From Asterionella formosa (Eukaryota), in assembly GCA_002256025.1 (NCBI GenBank), contig NKIB01014611.1:1-42053 (forward strand): a stretch of 42,053 bases of DNA. Direction: 5' to 3'. The notes under the pieces were generated by a model. The model did no database searches. It was not told the DNA's origin and saw nothing but the letters and a program-made list of their open reading frames with translations. The position numbers and the translations under genes were made by a program. Below are positions 3,209 through 42,040 of this stretch, in pieces. Positions within the stretch are counted from its first letter, which is position 1. Each line of letters opens with the position of its first letter.

Positions 3209-3710
3209 ACCAGGAACCTGGTACCTGGTACCAGGTACCCACCATCACTGATAATGGTGTACAGCAGAAGAAGCAAAACAACCAAGCAGGTGCAGCATCA
3301 TGAAACTGCTTGTAGACACGCGCCGCACGGGCTTGGATTTGACAGGGCACGCGACTTGCTGAGTCTGATCATATGAACGCTGCGCAGGGCCCTTATGTAT
3401 GATAGCCACCAGTATTATATCTCATGTACACGATACATAGACATAAATTCCTTCCGGTATGTAGAAGGTACCAGGTACCATGGTATGATGATGATGGAAG
3501 AAAGAGCACCGTTTTGCTCAGTTTGGGTTTCGGATAACTTGGTGGTACCTGATACCTGGTACCAGGGTACCCTACCATCAGCTCGGCACGGAACGACGGT
3601 ACCAGGTACCTGGTACCCTGTAGCTGGTATGCCTTGTACTGGAACCATGCATGTAATGGTACCAGGTACCTGGTACCACCAGGGAAAACAGCTACCTGGT
3701 ACCGGTACAT
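3209..3710. repeat. (GGTACCW)n palindromic repeat cluster upstream of the 4047 gene
   Basis: Perfect palindromes GGTACCTGGTACCAGGTACC 3220-3239, GGTACCAGGTACCTGGTACC 3598-3617 and TGGTACCAGGTACCTGGTACCA 3657-3678; further units at 3467-3485, 3544-3571 and 3693-3708. Confidence 0.9.
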
Positions 3711-4046
3711 AGGGCACCATCCACTTTTATACTTGTTCCGGAACCCCCCCCCCCACACGTATGGCTGCATTACACAACATGTATGTTGCGGTATGCAGGC
3801 CTCAGATTGGTGCTCAAGTACCATATGATACCGTGCAGCATCCCGATTTATTCGTCTGCCTGTCACGAGGACGCCGGATGGAAAAAAGAACAAATGAATC
3901 ACGCCTCCTTCTTGGGAAATTTTATTCTGTTCTCACAATTCTTCCATTTTCAAATTTCGCCCTTAACTACAGATCTGAACGTGAATGTCATTGGTAGAAA
4001 ACCGACTTGGCTTTTACTATTATCAAAGAAATCATAACATCACACA

Positions 4047-4814
4047 ATGTCAAACTTTTCTTCCAACCGCTTCATCTTCTTTGTGTCTCTCGCTGTCATG
4101 GTTTGCATTCATTCCTCAGTTGCGTTTTCGAATTCTCGTTTGTTTTTTGGAAAGAAGTCACTGGGAATTCTTTTGTGGAATTCGCATCGTTGGGGCGATG
4201 ATGTCATGTCAGAACAACGTCTGAAGCACCTCGCAAAACTCAAGAAAGAAGAGTGGGTCCATAACAGTGTAGAATACTATTCAAAGGTAATGCGTGATGA
4301 ACGCCGGAAGGGAGTGCGACACGAACCAGAGATCATGAAACCTATACAACACAAAGAATTTATGCACATGGCAATAAAGCATTACTTCGCTTTGCGCAAA
4401 ATAAAGGATGGAAAGCCCTTTCATGCCGAACGAATCTACCGGAATATCATTGATGAGCTTTCTAATGAGGAAGAAGGAACATGCGACCATTCAAAGCTGG
4501 CTGTGACAACACTATTGTTAGCATTGCTTCTTCAACGATTAGGAGACTTCAAAGGAACCCGCTCTGTCTTTCTAAACTTCTTTCGGATTGCAATCATGGA
4601 CCACGAGGATGATAATAAAGAATGCGTGTGCTCGGCAAAAGTATTGCAGGCATACGCCCTTTTCGAAATGAAACGTGGCAATTCACTGAAAAGCCTAGAG
4701 ATCGTCAATAAGGCAGTGAAACTCGACGACACGCTGGCTCCCATTTTAAAATGGAAGCAATTCAGAGATGCCATGGGGAGAACTAAACAGATCGTGAGTA
4801 AAGTCACAAGTTGA
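4047..4814 (+). CDS. Putative plastid-targeted helical-repeat (HAT/TPR-like) protein, 255 aa, intronless
   Basis: Hydrophobic signal peptide ending SSVA|F (Phe at +1). Helical repeat-like segments such as VLQAYALFEMKRGNSLKSLEIVNKAVKLD. Confidence 0.7.
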   Translation: MSNFSSNRFIFFVSLAVMVCIHSSVAFSNSRLFFGKKSLGILLWNSHRWGDDVMSEQRLKHLAKLKKEEWVHNSVEYYSKVMRDERRKGVRHEPEIMKPIQHKEFMHMAIKHYFALRKIKDGKPFHAERIYRNIIDELSNEEEGTCDHSKLAVTTLLLALLLQRLGDFKGTRSVFLNFFRIAIMDHEDDNKECVCSAKVLQAYALFEMKRGNSLKSLEIVNKAVKLDDTLAPILKWKQFRDAMGRTKQIVSKVTS

Positions 4815-4998
4815 TGAACAATACACTTCTGTTATTTTCATAGGTTCGCTGAAATAAGATATCATAGTAGAATTCTTGTAATAAAAAAGCCATATATCAG
4901 CCAGTACTTGATTCTTGATTAAGCTATGTCAGGGGTATGATGTTGTACATTTGACGATGACCCACACCCATTGCAGTTGGAGAGATCCTAATTTAATT

Positions 4999-6674
4999 TT
5001 AGTAGAGGCGCTTCTCGAAGCTATGAAGACCGTGAACACCGCCCTCTTTCTGCGCGGCCGGTGAACGAATTTCGAAGCGAAGTTTGTCAGCATAAAGCAT
5101 ATCTTGACCCTCTTGGACAGTCTTGATGCCAGCATCTTGAAGCCCGTGACGAATGCCCTGAGACAAATACGGAATGTAACGTCGAAGGGTGCCCTTGTCC
5201 TGTACAGCTCCACTAACACCCTGGGCGACCTTAACCGCTGTAGCCGAATTGTTTTCCCAAACATACCGCTTTTCTCCTCCTTTGCTCATGGCCTCAATGG
5301 ACCCCATTCCTCGGTAGCGCTTGAGACGTACTCCGTCCTGGTAAAAGTACTCGCCTGGAGCTTCGTCTGTCCCGGCCAACATACTTCCCATCATAACGCA
5401 ACCTGCTCCAAGGCACAATGCCTTGGTGATGTGCCCAGTAGACTTGATTCCACCATCAGCAAGGATCGGAACTCCATATTTTCTAGCAAACTTTGCAACA
5501 TGGTACACGGCGCTAGCTTGTGCGCGTCCAACAGCACAAACCTCTTGGGTTGTACAGATGGATCCAATTCCCATGCCGACACGAAGACCATCTACACCAG
5601 CCTGAATCAAGTGAAACGCCTGTGACGGAGTAACGACGTTACCTCCGATGACTTCTAGGTCAGGAAAGGTCTCTTTAAGGTGGGCCACGATTTCCAACTG
5701 GTAGCGAGAATCGCCCTGAGACGAGTCGACGACAAGAACATCAACGCCAGCTTCAACTAATGCAGCAGCACGTTCACGATCTTCGGGTCGAGTTCCAATG
5801 GCAGCTCCAACCAGCAATTGCTTGTTCTTGTCCTTGGATGCAATGGGAAAGTCCCGGTTCTTTTGTAAATCAGTTCGGGCGATCAAAGCAATAAGCTCAT
5901 CATGCTCCCCTACGACAGGAAGCTTTCCCTTTTTGGAAGACTTGAGAATTTCATTGGCATCGGAAAGGCTAATTCCATCCTTGGCGGCGATCAATGCGGT
6001 CCGAGGAGTCATAAATTCCTTAATCTTGACAGTAGGGTCTTCAATGAACGAGGTATCACGGTTTGAAATAATACCCACGAGTTTGCCTCCCATCTTCCCG
6101 GTGTCAGTTATTGGAAACGAGGAGAAGCCCATGGAAGCCTTCAGGCGAAAAATATCTTCGACAGTGTCATCTGGACCAAGACAAACAGGGTCGGTAATAA
6201 AGCCGTTTTTGAATTTCTTGACCTTGCGGACTTCGGCGCACTGGTCCTCAATTGTAAAGTTTGCATGGATGATGCCGATTCCACCCTGAAGAGCCATCAT
6301 AATGGCCATCTTCGATTCTGTGACAGTGTCCATGGGAGAAGAAACGAAGGGAGTGGCAAGTGTGATCTTCTTTGTCAATTTAGAAGTTATGTCGATTTCA
6401 TGAAGAGCCATATGAATGTGGCCGGGCATAACAATAAGGTCATCATATGTGTATGCTACGCAAGCGGGGTTATTGACAAAGACTTGAGTCGCGCTGAAGC
6501 TGTATTGGATGAATGGATGACGACAAGTGGCATACGTGAGAATAGGGATAGAAATAAAAGGATATTTAAATGGCTGTCGTAACACAAGGTATCAATCGTC
6601 GTTGTTTCTCACCCGCATCCTCCCGAGTTAAGCGTTTCCTCGTCGATCTCGTCAATGACTTTTCCATTGATCAT
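4999..6674 (-). CDS. IMPDH: Inosine-5'-monophosphate dehydrogenase, 520 aa; exons 6674-6613 and 6499-4999
   Basis: [17 protein letters not shown] pair, DSSQG, catalytic [27 protein letters not shown]. Intron 6612-6500 (GTGAGA...TACAG) joins [21 protein letters not shown] to FSATQVF in frame. Confidence 0.97.
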
Positions 6675-6976
6675 GGTGGGATGGAAAGAAACAGACATGA
6701 TAATGGGTTGTTCTTTCGGTTGGACGAAGAATTGGATGCAGCTGGTCTTTCGCGGTTGATGTTTGACAAATCAAATCGCATGTTGTGCACGAAGACATGT
6801 TTTGGTGAAGAGCGAAAATGATGACTGGTGCTGGTGTAGTATAGTGAAGCTGCTGATGGCTGCTGGCATTGCAAATATTTCTGTCCCACCGGAACTACCG
6901 GTAAAACACGCACACTAGGTGATGTATAGTTAGTGTACCGGCATCATATTTTTGAAAGACTATATGCACACAAGTA

Positions 6977-7020
6977 TACCTGGGTACCAGGTACGGTACC
7001 TGGTGCCGTATCACGTACCG
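6977..7020. repeat. GTAC/CCWGG repeat cluster upstream of IMPDH
   Basis: TACCTGGGTACCAGGTACGGTACCTGGTGCCGTATCACGTACCG, ~300 bp 5' of the ATG, at the edge of an AT-rich decayed block. Confidence 0.8.
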
Positions 7021-7980: not shown

Positions 7981-9618
7981 ATCACATACCGGTTTCCTCC
8001 ACCATAGTGATTGAGCCTCCTTCTTCCTGCCTGATTTCCATATCTCGAGTTCTGTTGTCATTTTTACCATATACTGTAAAGGTATAATTTCTTAATTGAT
8101 ACCTAAGCCTGGGCAAGCGGAAAGCTGAATTAAAGACTTGGCAATTCATGAAGAATGGGCAGGACATGTTTTCCTCCAAACAAAAGAGGGTGAAACACCA
8201 TAAAGGTGATCATTGAACTGTTCCAATTCCACGATGCTGCTCTTTTGGCCTATGATATGCCGAAACAGCACACCATCAATACAAATGATCCAATACTACT
8301 TGTAAATTATATGATTAAAATTCCAGCACCACGAAGAACACATGTTGATTGTAGGGAATTATCATACAGAAATTAAGTTCTGATATGTGCCCAGGATTCT
8401 CACCTGGTGCTGTTCCACATCAAACTTAAGCAACTCATTAAAAGCAGACCATACTGCAAGCTATATTGAGTCAAAAACTACGATTTCTAGAAAAAGCCAA
8501 CTATCTGTTCAAAGAATCCAAGAAATTAGCGGCATCGGTCCAAAAATCAATTTACACATATTATAACACTAAAACAGCAGCAACACAAGAATTGAGGACC
8601 AAAAGGAAGCAAGGTTCTAACACAATCTAAACTTCCCATACAATTCTCGAGCTGACATGAACAGTGCAGCTATGGAGAAATTCTCAGAGAACAACGCTAT
8701 ATTTTTTTAAAATCTACTTCCACATGAGGGAGTGACCACCACCAAAACAATCCTCCACCACCCCACCTTATATGGGCCATGGAGTGCAATGACCGCAACT
8801 CTAGAAATAGACTAGTAAGAATGCGCTATAAAAATGATTAATTTATGAAAATGTATTGCAGCTATGTTCGCACTAATGAAACCATGAACGTTAGGTTGCC
8901 AGTGCAAGCCACAATCTAAACCAATAGAAATGTTTCTTTTGTTTGGATATGGTCGGAGTCTAATCAACCAAATATCTGATATTTGGTCAATGAGGGGGTC
9001 ATTCTCGAACAAGAGCAAAGCAAATTTGGTCTTGGTTGATGTGGTGGCTAAAATATTTTTGCTTTTTCGACCAACATAATGCATCATTACATGTAATGAC
9101 TCCCAACTGCATTAGGCTTGGTATTTGGTCAATGCAGTTGAGATGCTCTTAAGCAAAACCAGCAAGAAGCAAATGGCAGAATAATCAATATAGATTGGTC
9201 TCAATATTTAGGCTTGATCAGATTAAAGCTAAATATATATTTAGGATCAACAAGCCGGTCGGGTTGGTTAATTAAACGGATATCAAGAAGAGACACATGT
9301 ATACCGGTATATCAATTTGGAATTGGAATCAGAATTGCCGGTAGGAAGTTGTACGTGGAAATAGAAATAGTAAAATTACCGCAGCAACTTGCAGGAACAC
9401 TGCCGGGTACAGGGACTAGTCTCATATACCAGTACCGGTAATCGTTTTCTCAACGGTTCGAAAATGTCCATCAACCCACATGATCACAAAAAAACCAGTC
9501 CAGACAGCTTATTATCGGTGGACAACTTGTACCATCAAGGATTCCAACAGTATAGTAGACTCCCATTCTTGTGCATTGAATAAGCTCCCTGATACTCCAT
9601 ATCTATTCCATCATAATC

Positions 9619-13105: not shown

Positions 13106-15115
13106 TCATTTGTCAAGATTACTGAGAAGGTCTGTTTCGTGTTTTTCAGATTTTATAATGGTACTGGATGCAGGGTCACCGGGATTTTCAGACGGCTTTG
13201 ATGAGCCAAACAAGAATCGTAATGGAATAAAGGCAACATGGAAGGGGAATAAAATGACAAAGTTTGCTGTCCGCCATATAGCCTTTCGAAAAAACAATGC
13301 CAAAATAGTAAGAAGAATTTGAACAAAGAGGTTCACAGCCTCTCGAGGCTTTCGGCACTGCTGGTTTGTGTATTCAATAACAAGTACTGGGGCATTGTAA
13401 TTCTTCAGCTCGCGACGGGCATGAGAACAAATCAGTTTGAACTCATTGACCAATCTCCTCTGTACCCAAGCTGCACCATCACCAACCCTTTTCATGACAG
13501 CCCTGATCTGTATGCCCGTTAACTTTATCAAGGGCCTCAAATGATTTTCTTGAAAAGGCCTGAAATGCTTGTCTACGTGCTCCTTTAAGATTTTATCATA
13601 CATCTCACGGGTCTTTTGGCAAAGTTTGTCAACGTATTGCTTTAAATGCTCGTTGTATAGCTCACGCGTCTTTTCTAGGTGAGACTCCGATGCCTGTTTC
13701 ATAAACTTGGTAGCGTGACCGGTGATCGCACCCACCTTCCCTGTTGCCATTGTGGCAGCGGTGATCATTGCTGCAGTTGTTTCTTCATGAATGTAAGTAA
13801 AGTTACAGAATGATCTTGATCTATACAATTGCTCCCAATTGGCAAGCTCCTGAGGAAATCTATGAGATGACGGTTTGAACGAACGACGTGAAAGTAGAAA
13901 ATAAGTACTTACCAATGAAGCATCACTAAGACGCTTGTCGAGCCTCTTGTTCCTTTTCTCTAAACCATCGACCTTTGTTTGAAGAGATGCTTTCGACGCT
14001 GTAAGTGTAGAAACTAATTGGGCGTGAATGGAATTGGTTTCCTTCAAAGTTAACTCCGCATTCCTCTTGGCTTCAGCGAGTGCTTCACTGGCTTTATGTT
14101 TTGCAACATCCAAGTCTTTCTTCGCGCTATCCTCTAGTCTCTCGATGATCTTCTTCAAATTCGAAATTTCCCTTTCATGTTGTGCTTGCAAACTATATAA
14201 TGATGCTTCTTTCTCAGCAGTCAGTTTGATGATCATTTCTTCGTTTTCACTCTTGACTGTCGCAAGGAACTCAGCTGCATCTTTTTTGATGTTTGCGATA
14301 AGAGAATCCTTCATTTCGTGCTCGTCTTCGTGCTTTATAATGAGTTCCTTAATTCGCGATGCTGTTGCCTTCTGCAAATCCTCTATCTCCTGTTTCGCAA
14401 GCTCTTGTACATCTTTGATATCGCGGGCCATTTGAGCTACCGTTTGAGAATGGGCCTGCTCCATGGTGAGGACCAATTGTTGGTTTTGCTGATGAGCTTC
14501 GGCGATCTTATTTTGTGCATCATTATTCAGTTGAATCTGAATAGATTCCCATTCAGCCTTGGCGGCTTCCATGGCAGCATCGGTAGCCGCTTGAATGTTC
14601 TTAACTTCATCCTTCAAGCCCTCGATCGCCTTGACGGAGTCTCTTAAAGCAGAATTGAGATGTTCTTCTGCATCCTTTGTCATCTTATCAACAATTATTT
14701 CATATTTTCGCGTAGTAGATTTCTGTACTTCTTCACTGTTATGTCTCCAGAATTCTAGCTCGTTGGTCGTGCTCGCCAAAGTCTTATTCATACTCGACAA
14801 CTCCTCTTCCAGTTTGGTTATCTGAGCCAAGGCCATAGTGTGGGCGGCTAAAACTTCATCACGCCTGACCTCTGCATGAGCCTTTTGCTCGTTGGCCAAA
14901 ACAAGAGACTTGGCCATTATAGAATCACAAGTCAATGCTGCATGTCCCACCGCTTCTTGCTCCTTGGTCACCTCGGTGACTGTCCCAGTCGAGGCATCAT
15001 CATGTGCGGCCATTGCTCGCTGTTCTCTCATTCCTCCAACTAATTTACGAACATCGATCCCATGTGCCATATTGGCACTTACGATGAGAGTGAACACGAG
15101 CGCTTTCATCGCCAT
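13106..15115 (-). CDS. Uncharacterised protein with signal peptide, long coiled coil and C-terminal hydrophobic segments; ~648 aa if intron 13912-13850 is spliced
   Basis: 2-kb ORF. MAMKALVFTLIVSANMAHG signal-like start, E/K/A-rich heptads, hydrophobic LFVQILLTILALFF and FVILFPFHVAFIPL. Internal GTAAGT...CTCAG 63-nt intron candidate. Confidence 0.8.
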   Translation of the reverse strand: MAMKALVFTLIVSANMAHGIDVRKLVGGMREQRAMAAHDDASTGTVTEVTKEQEAVGHAALTCDSIMAKSLVLANEQKAHAEVRRDEVLAAHTMALAQITKLEEELSSMNKTLASTTNELEFWRHNSEEVQKSTTRKYEIIVDKMTKDAEEHLNSALRDSVKAIEGLKDEVKNIQAATDAAMEAAKAEWESIQIQLNNDAQNKIAEAHQQNQQLVLTMEQAHSQTVAQMARDIKDVQELAKQEIEDLQKATASRIKELIIKHEDEHEMKDSLIANIKKDAAEFLATVKSENEEMIIKLTAEKEASLYSLQAQHEREISNLKKIIERLEDSAKKDLDVAKHKASEALAEAKRNAELTLKETNSIHAQLVSTLTASKASLQTKVDGLEKRNKRLDKRLSDASLVSTYFLLSRRSFKPSSHRFPQELANWEQLYRSRSFCNFTYIHEETTAAMITAATMATGKVGAITGHATKFMKQASESHLEKTRELYNEHLKQYVDKLCQKTREMYDKILKEHVDKHFRPFQENHLRPLIKLTGIQIRAVMKRVGDGAAWVQRRLVNEFKLICSHARRELKNYNAPVLVIEYTNQQCRKPREAVNLFVQILLTILALFFRKAIWRTANFVILFPFHVAFIPLRFLFGSSKPSENPGDPASSTIIKSEKHETDLLSNLDK

Positions 15116-15564
15116 GGTGAACAAGAATGAAATGAGTTAGAAAGTGTTGAGATTTTACGATGTTTTTCTCGTCGAAGCATTTTCGTGTTAGTAACGGCTG
15201 TCTGACTGGCTGACGGTGAGCAATGCGCCATGTGGCAGAGATTTCTGTGGTGACGGATAAAATCATAACCTTTACGACAGGTAGAGCTATTATGTATATT
15301 CCCTCTTTTCCGATATAGTTGCAAACTAACTTACCCCGGTAGGTCACTGCCTCACATGAAGCACAACCTCCAATAATTCTCCATCTAGTAACCCCTCCTA
15401 ATTGAAAATTATTTCAGAACATATTGGTTTATATAATATATATATTCTAACTGGTCTAGAACTAGTAGCTAGGTGAACCTGACTCGTTTTCCTTGGCGCT
15501 TTTTTCGTAAACTCGTGCCCTGATCGGAAATGTTTGCTCTGGACCCCCCCCCCCCCATTTTCAT

Positions 15565-19439: not shown

Positions 19440-19505
19440 CACCGTACCAGGTACCAGGGGGTACCACCCCTGGTGGCTGATGGGACAGGACACGTACCCG
19501 GTAAC
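19440..19505. repeat. GGTACC cluster with hairpin just upstream of the JmjC-like gene
   Basis: GTACCAGGTACCAGGGGGTACCACCCCTGGT; 8-bp stem 19453-19460 with 19467-19474. Confidence 0.85.
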
Positions 19506-19573
19506 CTAGTAGTTTTTGTCGCCTTCGTCTGGTTTAACAGAAAAATTATGCGACTCGCCCCTTTGCTTCGACC

Positions 19574-22091: not shown

Positions 22092-22577
22092 CTATCTAGC
22101 TTCTCGCTTCTCTGGTTCTGATGACATGCTTTCCAATCCTTGAACATTAGGCCAGTCCCTCCACTTGGGGGCAAGATTTCGGACATCTTTCACATCCTTG
22201 ATTCCAGTCAGAAAAGCTCCGATCTGGTCCAATTCACGGTCGGCAGGGTCGTCAATAAACGACGAGCAATCAATCGCATTTTCGGGATGAAATATGTAGG
22301 AACTAGGGGAGTTGTCCACAATAATAGCCTGGGTCAAATCTCTGTCTATCAGACTCATGTCTTTGACATAGTTTCCTTCGTAGTAGACACAGGATTCACG
22401 GAAAAGTCGAGCTCGGATAACGCGCTGAGGATCTAGGAGATCTAAAAGTGGATCCGCGTATTTGTTCAGACTGGCAGTGTACACAACAATCTCGTAGTGT
22501 TTTGACATTTCAACGAGAAACTTATCGACACCTGGTCTTTTGGCGACATAGACAAAGTGGACAACGTCTTCGATCTG

Positions 22578-22611
<34 letters not shown>

Positions 22612-27386: not shown

Positions 27387-27659
27387 CTGGTACCAGGGTA
27401 CCAGTACCAGTACTATGCAGTATGTCGACTTCTTCTTCTAACTAGGTAATAGAGCAGTAAAATGATATGAATAGGTAAGAATTCCCGTTAATGCGAGCAT
27501 CGCATGGAGTTAACAGCACACTGACTTATTTGAGCACCGCCATCATTATACAAATTATGGATGACGCGAGCAAGTTTGATCATCCTTCAACAACCTTGAT
27601 TCATGAAACACAGTGGTATCATGTTCTCAAAGTATTCAGATGTGGATACCAGTACTCTA

Positions 27660-29700: not shown

Positions 29701-31528
29701 TCATCGTTATTTTACTCCATCTTCCGACTAAAATATATTCAAGTAATATTGCAATCGAAACCTGATGCAAGTACGAAGTGTATGTTACACGATGCACTCT
29801 ATTCTACGAAGAAGTAATCAGATTCGATTCATTGTATAAAGCCATAAAGATCTTTTTTTTCAAAGTCATTAAGATTGTTGCATAGCGGTGGCTTACAGTG
29901 AATATTTTTCTAGTATCCATACATGATTATATGTTCACCCCAAACCGTGATTTTTTAAACTCCGTTTATTCTACAGAAATTCTTTTCGTATTACTTTACC
30001 TTTTTGCGCGATACAGTATGCTTTTTGCGCTTGCATCATCACCGAATTCTTCTGATGCATTGCATACTATGTTTATTGTATTGGCAAGGCTATTAGAGGG
30101 TGGTGGTTGTGTCTGTTAATGTAAATACCACTACTTCATAAGCATGACAAGTGTCATTCAGAAAATCTATTCGTATTTGCAAGTTCTAGTCTTAGTCAGC
30201 AAATTCTAGTTGTCATTGTCAGCAAGTTCTCAACATAGAAAGAGATTATTTTTATTGTATTCTGAAGCTAGAAGACGGTCGCTGAACCGGTTCATCAGTG
30301 AGCAAATCCAAGTCGTGTTCAGCCACTGATTCTGCAAATCGTCATCGGTCAATAAGAGTGACCGAATTTACTTCGACACAATTATCATCGCGTCTGATTC
30401 TCTTTCTCCAAATGTAGCTAGTAGGTAGCTAGCAGTGCTTCATGCTGCTCCATATGTACTTTGCTGGAATGACTAATACAAACCATAGAATAATAGAACA
30501 GCGAGCCAATAATAAATCAAAATAGCGTTAATCTTTGCTGTGGGAGGGATTTAGGGTGGTTGATTCATACTATAAATTGCGAAAGGCTTGCGATGTCTAG
30601 ACTGCTTCTTTGAATCGGCTTCAAAAGAATTGTGTGCTTCACCACCCCTCTATTCATTTACTGATGATAAACTGGCGTGGTTGTCCTCTTTCTCCCTTGC
30701 CTTAGCTGACGACTCTTCGTTGTTCGATTCAACTCTAAAGGTAGTAGATTTTAATATTCGCGTTGTCGCTTCTTAATCTATCAGCTTCGACCCCTTCGAT
30801 TCAAACGCATGAGATATACCGGTATTTGTATTACGGTGCTTGTGTGGCATGATGGCCCATCGCGTCCTTCCTTGTTTGTAATATAAAGTTTTCCTAAATT
30901 ACTTAAGGAACATTATTTCCATCGAAAACTGGCCTATCTCGTCCTGCAGGCATAGGACAATTCATTGGGAGTAGTGAGTCGGGGAGTGAGTCAAGACTGA
31001 AAAGGTGCGCATAAAACGTTCGTTACCAGGCCTTCATTGGTACTCCCTCTGTCCAATATTAAGTTGCATTGATTCGCCGGCACCACAAGTTTCTTTAATG
31101 TTCGCATATGAAGGATTACGTAGCAAATATACCATCTGTCTACAAGCGGATCGGCGTTCTCGAAAAAACCTTTTTTATGAGTTACATAGACGTGAACATA
31201 CGCTCTGTTTTTGTAATTAAATTATTGAAATCTGAATAAATTAATCCAAACCAGTTTAAATGAGTATATTAAATTCCGTATATGTACATATCGCCAAATG
31301 CTGTTTTACATTGGCTGGCCACTCAAATATTTGCGGGAAACCAAATACAACAAGCCACTATCATAATTATAACATGAATAGAATAATTGTCGTTCGGTAT
31401 ACTTTCTACGGTTGTTGCACCTACATGGACCATACTGCCGGATATTTAACCGTTACAATCCTCAAAACGAGCATACCGTCGTTTCTTCCTTCCCATCATC
31501 GCCACTTTTGGGGTTGTGAATTCCATAA

Positions 31529-31852
31529 NNNNNNNNNNNNNNNNNNNNNNNNNNNNNNNNNNNNNNNNNNNNNNNNNNNNNNNNNNNNNNNNNNNNNNNN
31601 NNNNNNNNNNNNNNNNNNNNNNNNNNNNNNNNNNNNNNNNNNNNNNNNNNNNNNNNNNNNNNNNNNNNNNNNNNNNNNNNNNNNNNNNNNNNNNNNNNNN
31701 NNNNNNNNNNNNNNNNNNNNNNNNNNNNNNNNNNNNNNNNNNNNNNNNNNNNNNNNNNNNNNNNNNNNNNNNNNNNNNNNNNNNNNNNNNNNNNNNNNNN
31801 NNNNNNNNNNNNNNNNNNNNNNNNNNNNNNNNNNNNNNNNNNNNNNNNNNNN
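31529..31852. other. Assembly gap
   Basis: Run of N. Confidence 0.99.
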
Positions 31853-32936
31853 TTGTGGATCCATAGCTTAGAGCTAGTCGCACAATAGGGCAATTGAGCT
31901 GGAGAAGAAGCCATAAACTACAAAATCATCAGCTAGCAACAAAAATTGATTTTTAAATCATAATTTATCTTTTTAAGAAAGACATATCATCATTGTCTTG
32001 ATGTTATTAACTGTTACTACCAGTACCAGCTGTAAACATTTTCCAGGAACATACACAGCAGATACATTCTATATCATATTGATATACATACATCGGTATA
32101 TATATCCCAACTATGTATGCATAGTGATTGCATATGTGGAGTCATTGGCTGGCTGTGAAGGTGCTGGTAAGCATTTTCTATCAGTGCCTCTGATTTCAAC
32201 AGAATCTTGCTCTCCAGTATCCCCCCAATCTTATTTCGATCAATAGGGTTTTTTGGATTGTTGGGGCTTCTGGATTGGGGCTTTTGGATTGCGGGTAGTC
32301 CCAGGTAGTTCGAATATTGGCCCATCCATGTTACTTTAGTAGCTTTTATAGTTATTCATCCAATACAACCACCATCGATGAAGGTGATTTGCACTGCATC
32401 ATTGCCTTATCCGTCATCTGCAAGGGGTGTCCAAATACCACAACATGCCAACTAAATGAATTATTAATAAGCTTACTATAGGAAAAGGTGGACAACAGGA
32501 AATCTTCACTACTGCACGCTTGCTTGCTTACCCGATATACCTGAGGGAAAATGATATATTTGCACTCCATGTCAAAAGAAACTACCATTCATTCGAAGGA
32601 AATGGGTTGAACAAGTCAAAAAGGAATAATTTTCATTTTTCCTGTTATTCCGCAATTTTTGTTCATCTTTGACCCTAATTTGAAATGAATTGTTGAGAAA
32701 CATGTAGTAAGAATCAGCAGCGCAAATCCATGGTGAGTTGGTGCCTTCAAGGCACTCCCCGGCCGTCATTCGATGGATGACCTGATCTACCGGTACTCGT
32801 ACGTAGTAAGTACAGGTTTTCTACTATCGGTAGATCTGGCGCTATTTTGCTTGCAGTTATCGGCATTGCGATCGTTCTCTTGGTGGCCCCTGAGTTGATT
32901 GACGAACCTGAATCTACAATACCTACTATTTCAACG

Positions 32937-35372
32937 ATGCAAGAAGGTGCCTGGGATGTTGCCTCGTCGGAGGAGATGATGGGAGTTCGTCTCTCCTTCC
33001 ATTGCTGGCCTTCGTCTCGACTAGAAGCTACACGATCAGTAGCTCCATTTGGAGCTCTCTACACACCTCTGAAGAAGTTGAATCCAGCTTGTTGCCCACC
33101 TACTGCATTGCCATATGATCCAGTTCGCTGTGCCACTGCGACTTGCAAGGCTGTCCTCAATCCTTACTGCCAGGTCGACTTTCGTTCGAAGCTTTGGGTC
33201 TGTCCGTTTTGTCTTACCAGGAACCACTTCCCTGCGCATTACGCAGACGCCATAAGCGAGACCAATCTTCCCGCTGAACTTATTCCTCAATATGTCACTT
33301 GCGAGTATGAGCTTCCCAGTGTACCCGACATGGGATCTCCTGCTTTCCTTTTCGTGGTGGACACTTGTGTTCATCCAGAGGAGTTGGCGGAACTCGCCGA
33401 TTCGCTTCAGCAAGCACTTTCACTTTTGCCAGAGCAAGCGTTGGTTGGCTTGATTACCTATGGGACAAATGTTCAGGTTCACGAGTTAGGCTTTGAGTCT
33501 TGCTCCAAAGCTTATGTTCTGCGTGGAAACCGAGAGTACTCTCCTGGTCGCGTTGGCGAACTCTTGGGCTGCACTCCCCGAGCCCCTGATCCTGGACAGC
33601 AGCAGCCAGGCCATCCTCCACAGCCCCCAATGGGACCGGGACAGGAAGTCTTGCAACGATTCTTGCTGCCAGTGTCAGAGTGCTCCTTTGTACTCGAACA
33701 AATTCTCGAGGACTTGCGCAAGGATCCTTGGCCTGTTCCCCACGACAAGCGTGTCGCTCGTGCCACTGGATGCGCTCTCTCTGTGGCAACTTCACTGTTG
33801 CACTTGGCCATTCCTCGTCGTGGCGCTCGTATAATGTTGTTTACAGGAGGTCCCTGTACATCTGGACCTGGAAACGTTGTGTCCCGCTTGAAGGAAGAAG
33901 ACATGCGTTCCCACGCAGACCTTGCGAAGAAGTCGGAACCCCTTTTTAAGCCTGCATGCGAGTTTTATGCCAACCTGGCTCACCCGACCACGAACGCCCA
34001 AGCCGCCAGCACTAAAAACAAAAATACTCATCCGAATCAGGGCAGCTGTTATCACGTTGTTGACGTCTTTGCTTGTTCCCTAGATCAAGTTGGATTATTG
34101 GAAATGAAGGTTTTGGTCGAAGCGACTGGTGGTTTAGTGGTGTTGGGGGACTCCTTCGGGCAATCTGTGTTCAAAGAATCTCTTCGTCGAGTATTCAACC
34201 GATACCCTGAAGATGATCAACAGGACGCTGGTAAGATGGCCATGGCTTTCGGCGCTAAATTGGAGGTGTTGACCAGTCGCGAGTTCAAGGTTTCTGGTGC
34301 TATCGGGCCTGTTACTAGTTTGGGAAAGCATGGACCGAGTGTTTCTGATTTGGAAGTTGGTAAGGGTGGAACAAACGCTTGGAGTCTAGGAGGTATAGAT
34401 CCACAAACGACCGTTGCCATCTACTTTGATATTACCAACCCAGGAAATACGCCCATGCCCGAAGGAAAACGTCGTTACATTCAGTTTTTGACTCAGTATC
34501 AGCACTCAAACGGACGAACTCGTCTTCGTTCCACGACCATATGTGGTGCTTGGTATAATCCTCCCGCAGGAGCTCAAGGCGACGCTGTCGCTCAGCATGA
34601 AAGTATGGCTGAAAGTCCCGTAAAGATGAGCTTCGATCAAGAAGCTGCAGCTGTTTTGACTGCAAGGATGGCCGTTTACCAGACCGAAACAGATGAAGTT
34701 GCAGATGTGCTACGTTGGGTGGATCGCACGTTGATTCGTGTATGCGCCAAATTTGCAGAGTACACCCCTGAAGATCCGTCTACTTTCCGCCTTTCTCCAG
34801 AGTTTGGCCTCTACCCACAGTTTATGTTTTATCTCCGTCGTTCACAGTTCTTGCAGCGTTTTAACTCGAGTCCTGACGAAGCGGCTTACTACCGTTATAC
34901 TCTGACTCGAGAAAACACAACTAACTCGCTGGTTATGATTCAACCAACACTCCTGTCGTATTCATTCAATGGTCCGCCTCAAGCAGCCCTTTTGGATGCT
35001 GAGAGCGTGCGTCCCGACACGATCCTTTTACTTGACACTTTCTTTCAAGTTGTTGTTTTCCACGGCGAGACTGTGGCGGCATGGAGAGAACAACGGTATC
35101 ATGAGCAAGAGGAACATGCTTCCTTTCGAGCGTTACTGGAAGCTCCTCAGTCTGACGCTCAGTTGATTATGGACGCTCGTTTTCCTGTGCCCCGTTACAT
35201 TGTCTGCGATCAACACAAGAGTGAAGCTCGTTTCTTAATGGCGAAACTGAATCCAAGTGTCACACATAACTCCAACTTGGATTCAGGTGGAGGAGGAGCT
35301 CAAGTCAACACAGACGATGTTTCTCTTCGCGTATTTATGGAACATTTAATGAAGCTTGCTGTACAAACCTAA
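32937..35372 (+). CDS. SEC23: COPII coat protein Sec23, 811 aa, intronless
   Basis: [15 protein letters not shown], zinc finger C...[80 protein letters not shown]. First in-frame ATG at 32937. Confidence 0.98.
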
Positions 35373-35605
35373 CTTGAAGGCATAATGTCACTTCTCTCGT
35401 CAACTTTTTCTTTCGAAGGAAGGAGTTATTCTCCGCCTTTTTAATTTTCACTATGTCTACGGCTCAAATAAGAAATAAAAGTATTCTCTAGCATAGTGTT
35501 TTGTTCTTCACGATGATGATATTCTACTGTTGAGGTACAATGACTTGGAATGAACTTCCAGCACGCTGAAATATAGGGGCAAGAAAGGGATGGATGACAG
35601 ATGTG

Positions 35606-37009
35606 TTAGAGAATGGTGTGCGGAAGCTGTGTGTAGGATTGTCGTCGAGCATTACTCCGTCTTTTGACGACGAATACCGATAAGCAAAGGATAGTGATAA
35701 GAAAGACACCCGAAATAAGATGCCGCACGTGACTGGTGGTTTGAGAGAGCAAGATCAATGCTGTCATTGATTTAAGAAATGAAGGAGATGAAATGATCGT
35801 TTCAACGGGCCCAACTTCAAAACTGTCACTAATCGCAAGTCGCTGAGTCCATGTTTTCGACTGGCCTGGTTCCAAATGAATGAAAAGCTGTGGTTCAGGC
35901 GAAATGGTTGTCTTTTCGAGATAGAGATTAAATCCGTACATATTAATGGGGTCATATGGCTGCTCGACAAACTCTGCAATGTCCTCAACAATCGATGTGC
36001 CACACGCTCGGAGGGTAAAGGTACCCTTGGTGCTGAGATCCTGGTTAAAGTACGCTTTGATCCGTATCCCACGTTCAACCTCACGTTCCATTTCAATAAG
36101 AACAGTATCACCCGTCGATTGCACCGTGGCATAATTTTGTAAAGGCGTGGACCAGAAGGGCGTATCAGGCTCCTCATATAGATCAGAGATATCATCAGTA
36201 GGTCGTAAACCCAAATCCACCGAATAACCAGGCCCAATGGGCCTGCTGTCACAAGAAAAGAAGTGATGGGAATACCAAGCGGTCGAAAAAGCATCGCTCC
36301 CAAGGTTTGTTAGTGTTGATTTCACGAGAAGTACATTGTCTACCAAAGATATATCCTTCCGCAACTTGTAACCGTACTGGTTGAGAGACTCTTGGTGTTC
36401 CAATACGACGGTGTTGATGAATGGCATAGACGAGTTCCACTTCGGCTGCGATGCAAAGACATATGGACTGTTGAATTTGTAGTCGTCGGTGCTATCACAT
36501 TGCTGACAGCTGCCCTTGATGAGCTTTCCAACGCCAATCTTCAGAAAGGGATCACCAGGTTTCGCAGAGCGATAACCCAAAACACCATTGGTGACATTGT
36601 CAACTCCATGCCAACCACATCTAAAGTCGCAGAAACTACCATCATCCCCAATACCAAATTCAGAAGCTAGACCTATTCCTGCCTCGGGCCAGAGGGGGTC
36701 ATGTGGAACACGCCACAGCTCCGATCCATACAGCGAGTGTGTGCGCTTGCTGGCAATGGCGTTGCCGTTCGAATCGTGAGTAGTTCGCCTAATTGCTCCA
36801 ATCATTGAACCATGTTCAAACCGTGTCGAGCGGTAAAAGAAATCGGCAGGATTTGTATCGGAATCGATGCCTCCTGGAAGGTAAACAGTGACTTGTAGGT
36901 CGTTGTTAAGCGACGACAGGGTCACATTCGCGTACGAGGCCGTTGCCGGAAGCAACCACAAACAGGTGAGTAAACACAATCCCACACATGGATGAGCAGG
37001 CAATGCCAT
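35606..37009 (-). CDS. Uncharacterised type I membrane protein, 467 aa, intronless; luminal domain resembles a bacterial galactose-mutarotase-like family
   Basis: Signal peptide MALPAHPCVGLCLLTCLWLLPATAS, motifs YRSTRF, PHDP, GY..AKPGDPFLKIGVG and YSHHFF, C-terminal TM helix and short basic tail ending YTQL. Confidence 0.8.
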   Translation of the reverse strand: MALPAHPCVGLCLLTCLWLLPATASYANVTLSSLNNDLQVTVYLPGGIDSDTNPADFFYRSTRFEHGSMIGAIRRTTHDSNGNAIASKRTHSLYGSELWRVPHDPLWPEAGIGLASEFGIGDDGSFCDFRCGWHGVDNVTNGVLGYRSAKPGDPFLKIGVGKLIKGSCQQCDSTDDYKFNSPYVFASQPKWNSSMPFINTVVLEHQESLNQYGYKLRKDISLVDNVLLVKSTLTNLGSDAFSTAWYSHHFFSCDSRPIGPGYSVDLGLRPTDDISDLYEEPDTPFWSTPLQNYATVQSTGDTVLIEMEREVERGIRIKAYFNQDLSTKGTFTLRACGTSIVEDIAEFVEQPYDPINMYGFNLYLEKTTISPEPQLFIHLEPGQSKTWTQRLAISDSFEVGPVETIISSPSFLKSMTALILLSQTTSHVRHLISGVFLITILCLSVFVVKRRSNARRQSYTQLPHTIL

Positions 37010-37126
37010 GGTTGCTTCGGTAGTGTCGGGCACTATCGAAACGAAAGCAGCGAACGTAACACCGAAATGATGAGACCAGATTGTTAGATAATGCAAATCC
37101 AAGAATTCTACCAACGCACACTTGTC

Positions 37127-37760
37127 AGTACCGGTCCCTTACCAGGGTAACAGTTACCTTGTACCCCCGGTAACTGGTACCAGGTACCAGGTACCACCGG
37201 TTCCCCTTTGTTGGCTGTGTTTCATATTCCTATTTACATGCCAGGGCATCTGTACATACATACACACACAAAGTAACCATCCGGTAAACTCCTTCGTACT
37301 AGGTACCTGCTACCAGGGTAAGGTACTTACCGTACATATGAGAAATATCGGTATAAACTGGTTGGATATCATCTACCGTACCGGTATTATACTATTATTA
37401 TTTCTGTTTTTACCGGGGATCTACCAACCGGCATTTTCGTAACATCTTGTACAGGTACGGTACCACCAATAGTGTACCTTGTACCTGGTGCTTGCTTTAC
37501 ATTGTGCTTACCGCTAAGATACTAACTACCAGTACCAGGTATTAAAGACCGCCCAATTGTGTGCAATCGAATCCTTTTCCTGTTCTTGTCGTGGATTCGT
37601 CGGTTGCATACCGGTATACCTTTACCAGTTGCGGTCATTTTGCTTGAACTAACATTTTAGTCTTGGATAAAAAGAGCTCAATCTTTTGTTCCAGAAAAAT
37701 TACCGCAACTTGCTTTGTACCTGGTGGAGGGGGATACTGAGTACTGGTGGTACCAGTCAC
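37127..37760. repeat. Extended GTAC/CCWGG cluster upstream of the 37009 gene
   Basis: CTGGTACCAGGTACCAGGTACCACCGG near 37174-37200, plus many TACC/GGTA units through ~37755. Confidence 0.85.
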
Positions 37761-38005: not shown

Positions 38006-38010
38006 CTCCC

Positions 38011-38276
38011 TATCCCTATGATGGACATGATTAAAATTCAAATCAATTGTATACATAGTAGGTTTTACTTACAAAAATATCTTTGCAACATATATAGCTA
38101 GGCATCACTATGATGGACATGATTTAAATTCAAATCAATCATATACTACCTCGGTACATACGTTTTCATGCAAAAATATCTGTGCAACATATACAGGTAT
38201 CCCTATGATGGGCATGATTTAAATTCAAATCAATCATATATGTACATTTACATACAAAAATATCTGTTCAACATAT
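38011..38276. repeat. ~80-95-bp tandem repeat, three copies
   Basis: Units share CTATGATGG(A/G)CATGATT(A/T)AAATTCAAATCAAT and CAAAAATATCT..CAACATAT. Confidence 0.9.
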
Positions 38277-39646
38277 TCGCGGCAGGACAATTGATGTTAT
38301 AAATACACAGTATCAGAATTCACACACAATTAGTCTTGTACATGCATATACATATATGAATATCAATCATGTCTTCTAAACAATAATTAGGTACAGATAT
38401 GTACATGTAGCTAGTACCCATGTGCGACTGCCCTAGGCTAATGCAAAACAAATGATTCAAATTCCGATTCAGCGGTTGCTGATGGTTGCGGCCAGTGATG
38501 GTAAACATGAAAAAATACAGGTATTGATATATTAATACTTACAATATTCTCTATGACCATAAATATTATACATATTAGATGATGAACCGAATTTATATGA
38601 TCATACTATGATCGTCATTATACAATGATGCATCACATGAAGAAGATGTTTTCTATTTGCAGATGTAATCATAGATATACCTTATAGTGAGAAATTGTGA
38701 ATCTACAATGGAAAAATATTTGTCAACTTATAGGAATACAACAAACAGAACTATTGATTTGGTTCAGAAGAAACTGGAGCCATAACTACCACTACCACTA
38801 CAACTATCATATGACAAGAGGACAAGCAAAATTGGTGTCAGGGTAAAATTCAAATTATATGCACCAATAAATCAATTGATTGCGGCAGTATTGTCATGTT
38901 GGACCGCGATGTGGTTGATTTTCAATGACCAACAAAATAAATTACAGTTGGCATAATATTAATGTGATGCTGACGTGTTTACAGTAATTTTATCAGTGAC
39001 AATGAACATGATACACAGTGATCAATGGCTCTATCACTGATACAGTATTGATCAGTGGTCCAAGAACTGTATCAGTTATACACACATGATACACCAGTGA
39101 TCATACTTAAATCCCATTGGTGATACAAACCGCCATTTTCGAAACAAAACCCAAAATGATACACCAATGACAACCAATGACAAAATGATAAGAATGGCCC
39201 TGAATCACTTGTTGGGACATGATGTTAGCTTGAGCATCATGCAACAGCATGTAGTTTGTTGGTGCTCATCTCAAAACGTTGATTGTGTATTGTCATATCA
39301 CCCACTAGGCACAAAATACCTGCTATGTAATGAGTGTCATGTGGGAGCATTTTCCAGTACATAAATGCCCAGTTGCAAGCAATATGCTCATTCACCAGGC
39401 ATACCTGGTACACATATTGATAACAACTAGCAAAAATGCTAGCTGCAATGCTTGATACTTTCACTAGAACTATGACAAAGTTCAATAGGTACAAGCGAGA
39501 AATGTTGACAGCTTTTTGCAATGAATAGACTGAATTGATTGACTACATTGGAGGGAAAAACTCCAACATTGTCATTTGCAAGAAATTAAATGATATGTTC
39601 ACAATTTCATTCAGTCCCTGACTTGACTCAACATAAATTGATATTC

Positions 39647-40533
39647 TCAATCATTCCATTTTTCTGTTTGTTGTTGTTTTCGCAACATTTCCAAGTCTAT
39701 TCTAGCAGGATCATCACCATACAAGGTGTTTGGTCGACGCCGCCTTCGGGCTTTGGAAATGATTGTATCAAGTTCTTGCATTGAGACAAAAACAGACATC
39801 CCCCCAGTCATATCTTCCACATTAGATTTACTTCCCAGCTTTTGAATCTGAATCTTACCCTTTCCAACACAAACTTTTCCATCAACGAGCACTTCAAACG
39901 TAGGCTCTTCTTTTGTATCCGGGTCTAGGGCGGGAAGAATTCTCTTTTCTATCAATACATCAGGATGCGACATTTTTATGCGCTTAGCAACTGTTAAGTA
40001 ATATGGCTGTGGATTGTTTGTAACGAATCAAATAGAATTCAAAGTGAGAGAACGAAATTGTGAGTAAACATACTCGACCAATAACCCATGCCATCAACAT
40101 TAGAATTAATTCAATCAAGTGAACTCTACCTTCAAACCGCTGCCTCCGCTATAGCGAATAGTGACAACCACTCTCTTATCCTGTGATTTCAGAATCAAAA
40201 ATTAGAAGAGGTCAGTTATCATTGCGAAATTCACTGTCACCACAATGCACCCATTGCACACACCTGCATTGTCAAGAACTTTTCAAAGGACACCGGCGGA
40301 GAAAGCGGAAGTAGATCTGACGCATTGACGAATTCAGTAATATTTATGTCGTCACTCACTATGGAATTCTCCCCATTGATAGCAGCTAGATTGCTTGTCT
40401 CGGCTACGGGAAAGGAGGAGGCCCTTGGTGCAAAAGACATGGCTGGCCCTTGAAGAAATGAGTGGCATTGAATTACGCATGCCAACAAAAGAAAAAGGCA
40501 GTGCAAGCAAGCAGTTGATTGCGTTCCCTTCAT
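39647..40533 (-). CDS. Putative plastid-targeted Rdx/selenoprotein W-like thioredoxin-fold protein, 226 aa; exons 40533-40264, 40180-40130, 40006-39647
   Basis: Signal peptide ending CHS|F. Two GT-AG introns give an uninterrupted frame reading VVVTIRYSGGSGLKPYYLTVAKRIKMSHPDV...FEVLVDGK, matching the Rdx pattern. Confidence 0.75.
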
Positions 40534-40659
40534 CTTGTCCGATTTCTGGGACAGCGACGAGGATCGAAGGCTTCGTCAAAAAAAGTGAGAAAACAAAACA
40601 GCGCCGAAAACCATAATGCTGGTGACTACGGTATATACCAATACCAATCATAACGTGAC

Positions 40660-40850
40660 TACCGTACCTGGTACCCTGGTACCAATACCATTCATTCATT
40701 ACCGTGGGTATGATATACCGCAGTGCCCAATGTACGTCATACATGATACCAGGTGCCATGTACCAAGTAAATCTTCCGGTACCTGGTACTCCGAACAGGT
40801 ACCCTGGTACCGGTACTCGGAGTACTGGTACCAGGTACCAGGAAGGTCCA
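40660..40850. repeat. (GGTACCW)n cluster upstream of the Rdx-like gene
   Basis: GTACCTGGTACCCTGGTACCA, GGTACCTGGTAC, CAGGTACCCTGGTACCGGTAC and CTGGTACCAGGTACCAGG. Confidence 0.9.
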
Positions 40851-41099
40851 GTAGCGCACGTTCAATGCGCACCTTTTCAGTTTCGACGCACTCCCAATGG
40901 ATCCTCTCATGCCTGCCAGCCAAGATGGACTGGCTTTTCATTCCGAACTCTCTTACCAGTAAGTAACTTTCTTTAATGTTAAATTATTATTCAATAAATC
41001 CAAGTCGTGTTCTGATCATCGAAATCTTGTTCAGCTACACTACTGGTAATGGTATTCAGCAACTTGATGATGGTTCTCTAATGGAATTCACCAATAAGC

Positions 41100-41710
41100 A
41101 ATTTCTAGTCATAGTCAGCAGTTTCTAGTTGTAGTCAGTCAATTCTTGTCATTGTCAACAAATATTGTTGTCAGCAAGTTATAGTCATTGTCAGCAGATT
41201 TCTAGTTGCATGTAGTCACCAGCTGGATCAGCACTCATAAACAAAGAGTCATTTTGAAAATGTCATTGGACTTTTAATCGACATTACTTAAGCAAATAGA
41301 GAATCAAACAAAATTTCTTTCGATTGACATATTACCATTGTAGCATGCTGTGTACTGTAAAAGTGTCAAATCTGTTCGTAACTTCGTCATTTTGAATTGT
41401 GCATCAATTAAACTACATGAAGCAATGCGCCATCTGCGACTTAAAATTTCGTTGTCATTATTAGTGATATTACAATTATTATTTACGATTGTATGAATCT
41501 ATGTTGTGTTAGATGTATTCACCAGATAGCATTTTCCATGGAGATATTTGTTATTTTCGACATGTCAAGGTGGAGATGGCATGATGCAGGTTTCTCCAGC
41601 AAGGCACAAGAACTACACTCAAGTGTTTTATGCATTGCAACATCTAAGCTAAATAATAATATCCAAGCTTCTATAAGGGCTACCTCAGGTACCAGGTACC
41701 CTGAAATATA
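41100..41710 (+). repeat. Dispersed repeat, copy 2 of 29100-29700
   Basis: Collinear matches over ~600 bp, including the ~20-bp sub-repeats. Confidence 0.9.
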
Positions 41711-41941
41711 GACCAGTATCCTATGTAGCCATAGTATGTACCTGTGTGATATGTGATATACTATGTAGGATATTGCAAATAGTATAGCGTTGGACGTGTC
41801 TGTTAGGCTGTTAATGTCGACAGGTGTCCGAAGTCTAGATGTAGTCTGCGGAATGTCTAAATGGAAATAGACCGGATTTATATAGCAAAATAATATGCAG
41901 ACGAGCGGCGGGAGAAAGATCTTGACCGGTCATTCCAGGGC

Positions 41942-42040
41942 AGTACCTGGTACTGGAGCGCGCTAGAGTAGGCGCCATATATTTCAACACTACTGGACCT
42001 TCCTTGTACCTGGTACCAGGTACCAGGTACCGGTACTACT
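41942..42040. repeat. (GGTACCW)n cluster at the window end
   Basis: AGTACCTGGTACTGG and GTACCTGGTACCAGGTACCAGGTACCGGTAC. Confidence 0.85.

Follow-up and report, generated by a model that had tools for sequence, protein, structure and literature searches.

Contig NKIB01014611.1 of the Asterionella formosa assembly GCA_002256025.1 is considered here over its full 42,053 nucleotides (the window), with the focus on a short self-complementary motif, in its repeated form (GGTACCW)n, that lies upstream of the genes in this stretch. Long open frames with Pfam matches identify the window as a eukaryotic nuclear contig of a freshwater diatom. The nearest relatives of its IMP dehydrogenase (IMPDH) are diatom proteins (top match 92% identical, named diatoms 77-84%), and the stretch is present in public runs of lake and freshwater metagenomes and of one "algae metagenome". 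The G+C content is ~41%, N gaps are located at 22635-22646 and 31529-31852, and Rfam and tRNA scans of the window gave no matches. The following genes are referred to throughout.

800-2167: copia-type reverse transcriptase (Pfam match on the open frame)
4999-6591, minus strand: IMPDH (Pfam match)
From 9785, plus strand: MFS_5 transporter (Pfam match)
22092-23691, minus strand: NIF-type phosphatase (Pfam match)
32781-35372: Sec23 (Pfam match)
35606-37138, minus strand: 510-aa gene
39513-40572, minus strand: spliced gene

The original prediction, made from the letters alone, had named strong clusters of the heptamer together with weaker, single palindromes, and had proposed shuffled sequences as a control. 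Comparison with 100 dinucleotide shuffles gives 35 copies of GGTACCWGGTAC in the window against a mean of 0.00, and 50 copies of GGTACC against a mean of 4.53 and a maximum of 9 in any shuffle. GGTACC is the hexamer with the highest z-score in the window when N-containing words are excluded (50 vs 4.3-4.5 expected), and the next most over-represented hexamers are its rotations GTACCA, TACCAG, CCGGTA, and TACCGG. The core is better described as TACC(N0-2)GGTA, which occurs 52 times, including 14 copies of TACCGGTA and 25 of TACCWGGTA. Tiling TACCWGGTA at 7-bp steps creates a GGTACC at every junction and reads (GGTACCW)n. Tandem Repeats Finder accordingly reports period-7 arrays of 2.1-4.6 copies at the cluster positions, i.e., short units (in the 1-9 bp range) placed head-to-tail as in a microsatellite. 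When the window is searched for the 14 heptamer words of (GGTACCW)n, clusters appear at 3216-3239, 3466-3703, 6977-7004, 19444-19466, 24730-24745, and 24892-24914 in the left half and at 27385-27410, 37140-37541, 37717-37756, 39402-39411, 40664-40842, 41686-41744, and 41943-42031 in the right half of the window. Every predicted strong cluster is recovered at or near its expected place, and the weak TACCGGTA-type sites are real, those at 9302, 9433, 23727, and 32788 being among the 14 copies.

The position of the motif relative to genes was analyzed for the nine non-transposon genes, using as 5′ reference the outer end of the open frame or, where present, the 5′ end of an RNA contig. A core is found within 600 bp upstream of all nine genes and within 600 bp downstream of one (Fisher p = 0.0004). 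The latter, at 39402, corresponds to the weak downstream exception foreseen near 39401 and is the sole 3′-flank case. Gene bodies, which occupy 13,847 of the 42,053 bases, contain none of the 52 cores and three of the 50 GGTACC hexamers, in keeping with the expectation that the arrays lie outside coding regions.

RNA contigs were available from two different studies, a polyA library (X12) and a lake metatranscriptome (X9). The distance to the nearest core is given from the X9 contig end.

NIF-type phosphatase: RNA contig 5′ ends at 23573 (X12) and 23574 (X9), nearest core 153 bp beyond
Spliced gene 39513-40572: RNA contig 5′ ends at 40571 (X12) and 40572 (X9), nearest core 93 bp beyond
Sec23: RNA contig 5′ ends at 32922 (X12) and 32893 (X9), nearest core 105 bp beyond
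510-aa gene: RNA contig 5′ ends at 37053 (X12) and 37133 (X9), nearest core 7 bp beyond

The X12 and X9 ends agree within 1 nt for two genes and within 29-80 nt for the two others; since such contigs are not mapped starts and may break at repeats, these distances are to be taken as support and not as proof. The region 24-32 kb lacks RNA contig cover, which was not counted as evidence of silence. Site by site, the window contains the following.

3209-3710: largest array zone of the left half, with three 3-unit arrays (3220-3239, 3598-3617, and 3658-3677) plus 2-unit and decayed copies; 338-569 bp upstream of the open reading frame (ORF) 4038-4814 (plus strand)
6896-7020: TACCGGTA at 6896 and GGTACCAGGTACGGTACC at 6983-7000; 305-394 bp outside the outer end of the IMPDH frame (4999-6591, minus strand)
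9302-9440: two isolated copies of the palindrome TACCGGTA, lying 352 and 483 bp upstream of the MFS_5 frame (9785, plus strand)
15332-15341: single TACCccGGTA; 196 bp upstream of the ORF 13106-15136 (minus strand)
19444-19505: GTACCAGGTACCAGGGGGTACC and GTACCCGGTA; 43-93 bp upstream of the ORF 19538-20863 (plus strand)
23727-23734: single TACCGGTA; 153 bp past the RNA contig 5′ end of the NIF-type phosphatase gene
24730-24914: two arrays and one TACCGGTA, bordering a block of high-copy repeats; the second array (24892-24914) belongs to a 27-bp insertion in a repeat copy
27385-27413: array GGTACCAGGGTACCAGTACCAGTAC in a repeat-rich block, beside the second repeat copy (27251-27354)
32788-32815: TACCGGTAC and two more GTAC; ~80-105 bp upstream of the Sec23 RNA contig 5′ ends (32893 and 32922)
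37140-37760: array zone of the 510-aa gene (minus strand), starting 7 bp past the X9 RNA contig 5′ end (37133)
37176-37196: perfect (GGTACCA)3; decayed GTAC, TACC, and GGTA words extend over ~600 bp of the zone 37140-37760
39402-39411: single core TACCTGGTAC in the 3′ flank of the spliced gene 39513-40572, 111 bp past its last RNA-covered base
40664-40850: array zone, 93-257 bp upstream of the RNA contig 5′ ends (40571 and 40572) of the spliced gene 39513-40572 (minus strand)
41686-42040: high-copy DNA closing the window, with arrays at 41688-41700 and 41943-42036 (4.6 units) and without an assignable gene

Some of these sites have company. The palindrome AGCGCGCT occurs twice in the window (19400-19407 and 41957-41964; 0.09 expected), each time ~40-50 bp from an array. 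The arrays at 40825-40854 and 41990-42019 share a flank of ~30 bp (97% identity) in opposite orientation, and 40865-40895 also matches 30982-31012, which may represent a small repeat module attached to arrays. At the window end, 41397-42053 has a depth of 9709 in the X9 metatranscriptome, compared with ~200 for the neighboring genes, and its depth is very high in DNA runs too, suggesting a high-copy, apparently transcribed repeat.

The motif recurs on other contigs. Scanning metagenome contigs for GGTACCWGGTACCWGGTACC gave at least 124 stretches from many projects, corresponding to 123 loci, and a scan of a viral collection gave no matches. Comparison of the 123 loci revealed no orthologous loci that overlap. 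Loci of 36-50% G+C mostly carry several clusters each, as the window does, and their long ORFs encode eukaryotic proteins; five of these ORFs contain DUF6824, the Atlas clusters of which are mainly Bacillariophyta. Genes with DUF6824 are the 5′ neighbors of array zones on four contigs (L014 975-1751, L045 7290-8399, L061 1602-2819, and L078 2480-3553), an adjacency that may only reflect a large gene family, and the searched literature held no mention of this domain. On one array contig the encoded CCT-beta is 88% identical to that of Seminavis robusta and ~70% to those of other named diatoms, but the window IMPDH is only 77% identical to its Seminavis counterpart. Hence, more than one diatom lineage probably carries the feature, tentatively so as the CCT-beta contig holds one array only. 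Loci of >50% G+C (e.g., L023, L037, L073, and L101) have isolated (GGTACCT)n or (GGTACCA)n runs of up to ~10 units, some of them in long open frames; these are mostly built from one repeated W and are of the ordinary microsatellite kind. An array of 88 words is present on L067 near animal-like PDE4 exons. L067 (animal-like), L021 and L066 (bacterial gene content), and the duplicates L017, L044, L098, and L104 were set aside.

For loci of at least 5 kb together with the window, ORFs of at least 150 aa served as genes. The loci had been chosen for having an array, and that choice was blind to gene orientation. Upstream, 43 of 89 ORFs have a core within 600 bp; downstream, 15 of 90 do. Core density per kb is 4.19 upstream, 1.35 downstream, and 0.54 within ORFs, being low also in the first 300 bp past stop codons. 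Sorted by the orientation of the flanking ORFs, intervals hold a core in 9/15 divergent, 14/39 tandem, and 3/21 convergent cases; on removal of the intervals through which the loci had been ascertained, the figures become 5/11, 7/32, and 2/20. Genes next to an array zone turn their 5′ end toward it 40 times and their 3′ end 21 times (three non-diatom loci are still included in this count), and no zone lies inside an ORF. The proposal that the motif marks nearly every gene therefore holds for the window (9/9 non-transposon genes), while on other contigs it applies to about half of the ORFs (43/89). The predicted promoter-region location is supported: in the window cores lie upstream of 9/9 genes and 7-153 bp past the RNA contig 5′ ends of four of them, and on the other diatom-like contigs they are enriched upstream and depleted in ORFs and near 3′ ends, as would be expected for a promoter element.

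The anatomy of the element was derived from 72 loci (300 kb). TACC-W-GGTA is present 596 times (A 315, T 281) compared with 12 for TACC-S-GGTA, while the forms with a spacer of 0 (TACCGGTA) and of 2 bp (mostly AG or CT) number 68 and 61, respectively. Arrays are 2-4 units long, with a maximum of 7. Among 105 pairs of neighboring units, 70 have the same W and 35 a different one; as the reverse complement of the unit equals the unit with W flipped, one third of the neighbors are inverted copies. Flips of W and perfect palindromes had been pointed out in the window, and palindromic arrays do exist at 3598-3617, 3658-3677, and 3220-3239; in the wider set, however, the same W follows twice as often as the other. 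The distance from one GTAC to the next is 7 in 434 cases and 5, 6, or 8 in 83, 93, and 85, and no spacing signal was found beyond 7, 14, and 21 bp. Read in the direction of the downstream gene, W is A 127 times and T 120 times, so neither strand is preferred. Predicted hairpins have stems of 7-11 bp with free energies of -5.6 to -10.5 kcal/mol (z-scores -1.3 to -2.9), stems that we consider short for stable extrusion. Zones in the other loci are also rich in TAGTA and TACTA words.

How the copies arise can be followed at one repeat and between strains. Self-BLAST of the window identifies a repeat at 24915-25027 and 27251-27354 (83% identity), which is also found in locus L027. In pairwise alignment the copy at 24.9 kb has an extra 27-bp block, CAAC plus three GGTACC units, that is absent from the other two copies, and homology continues for at least 45 bp on both sides. 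The block is an insertion into pre-existing DNA. Its right junction, GGTACCAGTAT, is identical to that of an array ~150 bp upstream, which suggests local templating. In run X2, GTACCG is added behind 32703, turning CAT-GTAG into CAT-GTACCGGTAG and giving a second TACCGGTA at the Sec23 flank, and GGTAC at 37454-37458 is missing. Ten indels are listed for the 20 kb compared, and the two that fall in promoter flanks are +GTACCG (32703) and -GGTAC (37454). Together with the 380 perfect copies compared with 107 variants discussed below, the 27-bp insertion and these strain indels lend substance to the insertion or repair component that the original prediction had suggested.

With respect to transposons, the distribution of terminal inverted repeat (TIR) scores in 293 inter-array spacers was like that of the control, and self-BLAST of the window found no interior shared between zones apart from the arrays. 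A miniature inverted-repeat transposable element (MITE) or other DNA transposon between arrays was therefore rejected, given no TIRs above control, no shared interior, and no target duplication seen. A 7-bp target-duplication model gives the same-W pairs and fails to give the flips. The repeat itself belongs to a high-copy family (24840-25027 and 27215-27354; L027 150-420) with two direct copies 2.3 kb apart and a third on a metagenome contig. In run X1 the DNA depth over 25389-26055 reaches ~1000 times that of single-copy sequence, and the repeats could be long terminal repeat (LTR)-like ends of a non-autonomous element.

The arrays are found in DNA contigs of independent studies. One X2 contig (32925-37605) traverses the array at 37176-37195 and the greater part of the zone beyond it, another (39218-40894) spans the entire 40664-40842 zone, and an X1 contig, from another study, reads across 37176-37195 with no differing letters. 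At 27385, 37194/37196, 40664, 42006, and 42030, each DNA run yields 10-42 contigs that agree over the array and diverge beyond it, a behavior that points to a repeat scattered through the genome(s) of those samples. The arrays thus break short-read assemblies, and they also yield spurious ORFs, both of which are relevant to annotators. A 179-aa open frame at 3393-3932 (minus strand) that runs across arrays encodes GTRYLVP/GTRYQVP-like repeats and is a likely source of spurious gene calls. The suggestion that VPGTWY-type spurious peptides occur in other algae received no support, the best Atlas score being 0.87, below the bar of 0.9.

Three further observations concern other parts of the window. 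The intron of the NIF-type phosphatase gene (22570-22740) contains a 31-nt G run, a T run, a CCCCG repeat, and a 12-N gap, and assemblies break there. Sec23 (plus strand) and the convergent 510-aa gene (minus strand) are both spanned by single RNA contigs in two runs (32893-37133), so their 3′ ends overlap or abut within the 239 bp that separate the frames. Three unrelated tandem repeats, of 77, 95, and 27 bp, are found in repeat-rich parts, at 26316-26476, 38011-38273, and 2248-2369, respectively.

Collectively, these data lead us to favor, tentatively and from sequence, a putative symmetric protein-binding site that would act in diatom nuclear genes as a general promoter or boundary element and would multiply locally. 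In this model the element would be lineage-restricted, its core being the 9-bp palindrome TACC-W-GGTA, with minor forms having a 0- or 2-bp spacer. Its place would be the non-transcribed spacer, beginning ~10 bp from transcript 5′ ends and reaching several hundred bp upstream; some genes (Sec23, the NIF-type phosphatase, and the MFS transporter) have single sites and others zones of 2-4-unit arrays. The inverted TACC and GGTA half-sites might be bound by a symmetric dimeric DNA-binding protein, presumably one that serves promoters in general by keeping the region open or marking its boundary; the presence of the site at unrelated housekeeping genes argues for such a factor and not for the switch of one regulon. 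New sites would arise close to existing ones through tandem duplication and short templated insertions, in either orientation and possibly by a repair route, and such local multiplication would explain why the copies are sharp, clustered, and polymorphic. We prefer this model because single, well-placed sites lie upstream of unrelated housekeeping genes, because a 1-bp W center is strongly preferred while 0- and 2-bp spacers are tolerated, much as in the AP-1/CRE pair of dimer sites, and because the repeat-rich DNA of the window is poorer in cores than gene-upstream DNA.

Several observations weigh against this model. The copies are very sharp, with 380 perfect GTACCWGGTAC compared with 107 single-mismatch variants at the nine inner positions together, which is unusual for transcription-factor sites and typical of copied DNA. 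Cores become denser with distance from the ATG, from ~2 per kb over the nearest 100 bp to ~9 per kb between 400 and 1000 bp upstream, with no sharp peak near the start; this broad rise fits a compositional zone better than a core-promoter box, and suggests a motif that fills the untranscribed upstream spacer at no fixed distance. Outside the ascertained intervals, cores are present in only 12/43 promoter-containing intervals compared with 2/20 convergent ones, and the genes used were ORFs of at least 150 aa and not gene models. Within the window, the RNA contig ends are not true transcription starts and may reflect contigs that break at repeats. Some RNA-library contigs hold arrays with other flanks (X12 loose ends at 37174, 42005-42024, and 31038), so either the arrays are not strictly untranscribed or DNA is present in those libraries. 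Finally, arrays also occur in repeat-rich, RNA-poor DNA without a nearby gene (24730-24914 and 27385-27413).

The closest competitor, which we regard as possible but somewhat unlikely, is that the arrays are a neutral by-product of a sequence-biased break-and-repair or transposon-footprint process acting on accessible upstream DNA. In this scenario, breaks would be rejoined via GTAC microhomology or by short templated or snap-back synthesis, whereby GTAC units would be seeded and expanded. Copies in transcribed DNA would be selected out, through their hairpins and their likeness to splice sites (CAG|GTA), so that the 5′ bias would combine tolerance with break location and would not reflect a function. 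The block of three GGTACC units in one repeat copy and not in two, with the GGTACCAGTAT junction repeating that of its neighbor, is what such a process would leave, and both promoter-flank indels add or remove a GTAC unit. The same holds for the ratio of perfect to variant copies, for the flips in 35 of 105 pairs while G or C occupies the center in 12 of 608 cases, a pattern unlike random point mutation, and for the spacings of 5, 6, and 8 beside 7 and the rise from the ATG without a peak. For the sharp copies, the broad zones, the insertion, and the indels, repair is at least as good an explanation as a promoter element. The spacers, however, carry no TIRs beyond control and the zones no shared interior, and a 7-bp target duplication predicts same-W neighbors only, leaving the flips unexplained. 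The indels may be gains or losses, and the GTACCG difference could equally be a microhomology deletion. A lower core content in repeat-rich than in gene-upstream DNA is odd for a neutral process, and the single sites that precede two transcript ends, by 105 and 153 bp, look as if placed there. A protein-binding promoter element and neutral repair are compatible, as a motif born from repair could be used afterwards.

A variant that joins the two seems unlikely to us: a self-propagating nuclear palindrome in more than one diatom lineage, where a sequence-specific break, repair, or recombinase activity would write GTAC-centered heptamers into nucleosome-free upstream DNA and the cell would then read the arrays as a general signal for promoters or boundaries. 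Such a palindrome would be the eukaryotic equivalent of the bacterial REP or HIP elements.

It is improbable that we are dealing with an ordinary heptanucleotide microsatellite, grown by replication slippage and common in intergenic DNA. The period-7 arrays from Tandem Repeats Finder, the 70 same-W pairs out of 105, and the isolated uniform (GGTACCW)n on unrelated high-GC metagenome contigs all have this look. But the arrays are mostly 2-4 units long, 7 at most, and slippage is inefficient at array lengths this short. Single palindromes (TACCGGTA, TACCWGGTA) share the distribution of the arrays, and single TACCGGTA sites upstream of housekeeping genes are not expected of a plain microsatellite. 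Nor do the units keep to one orientation and grow by slippage: a third of the neighbors are inverted (35/105), there are many separate arrays per zone with a strong 5′ over 3′ bias, and one array was inserted, as the 27-bp block, where no repeat existed.

Lower still do we rate a target of a DNA-modification or restriction-like system, where methylation of GTAC or CCWGG would mark promoter DNA. The center is strictly W, and the unit combines GGTACC with ACCWGGT/CCWGG, both of them classical palindromic enzyme sites; a modification target, however, need not be tandem or clustered. An assembly, library, or linker artefact, which the many contigs that break at arrays might suggest and which absence from independent data would have betrayed, is refuted for practical purposes by X2 and X1 contigs that cross the arrays, by the at least 124 GGTACCWGGTACCWGGTACC-containing metagenome stretches from many projects, and by breaks that a dispersed repeat explains (10-42 contigs per run sharing an array and then diverging).

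Little is understood of diatom promoters, for which few general cis-elements have been described. A sharp 9-bp palindrome that precedes all the genes of a 42-kb stretch and recurs on other diatom contigs offers a concrete experimental handle. Were it a general promoter or boundary signal, it would aid diatom gene annotation and promoter design; were it a mutational footprint, it would reveal a sequence-specific DNA break-and-repair activity at promoters. In the searched literature (GGTACC/GTAC, diatom promoters, and heptanucleotide microsatellites; few subscription journals covered) no description of the motif was found, only restriction-site primers or unrelated work, and among the papers listed for tandem forms of the motif none contained such a form. 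The passages searched in a paper on Phytophthora factor specificities (PMC11267843) and in bioRxiv 10.64898/2026.03.25.714157 contain no mention of GTAC, GGTA, or TACC. The element is apparently an undescribed promoter-region feature.

With regard to related systems, the arrays resemble MITEs and excision footprints in being dispersed short repeats near genes, one of them an insertion, and differ from these in that neither TIRs, a conserved interior, nor a target duplication is seen around or between arrays.

The bacterial REP/BIME extragenic palindromes are mobilized by RAYT transposases and lie mostly downstream of genes. Like these, the diatom palindromes are extragenic and clustered, and the copies look propagated and not independently evolved. 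Unlike these, the element is nuclear and upstream of genes and forms weak hairpins (-5.6 to -10.5 kcal/mol), and no transposase was found in linkage with it. HIP1 (GCGATCGC) of cyanobacteria is a highly iterated palindrome, prokaryotic, common inside genes, and without an agreed function. The diatom motif is likewise one short palindrome many-fold over expectation (GGTACC 50 vs 4.5; 14 TACCGGTA in 42 kb), but it is tandem, and it is not spread through genes and spacers alike (0/52 cores and 3/50 GGTACC in gene bodies).

Among tandem repeats in promoters, unstable yeast repeats set nucleosome occupancy and (GA)n arrays are bound by GAGA factor. Here too the units are short, tandem, and concentrated in promoters, with a unit number that varies between strains; the difference is that one self-complementary unit dominates many genes and contigs and occurs both inverted and direct. 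Palindromic elements of housekeeping promoters include the Drosophila DRE (TATCGATA, bound by DREF), the vertebrate NRF1 site, and the sites of yeast Reb1-type general regulatory factors. The diatom element shares with these a short palindrome, located ~50-200 bp upstream of putative transcript starts at unrelated housekeeping genes, in both orientations and in part as single sites, whereas its sequence differs, it tiles into 7-bp arrays and 500-bp zones, and its copies are much sharper.

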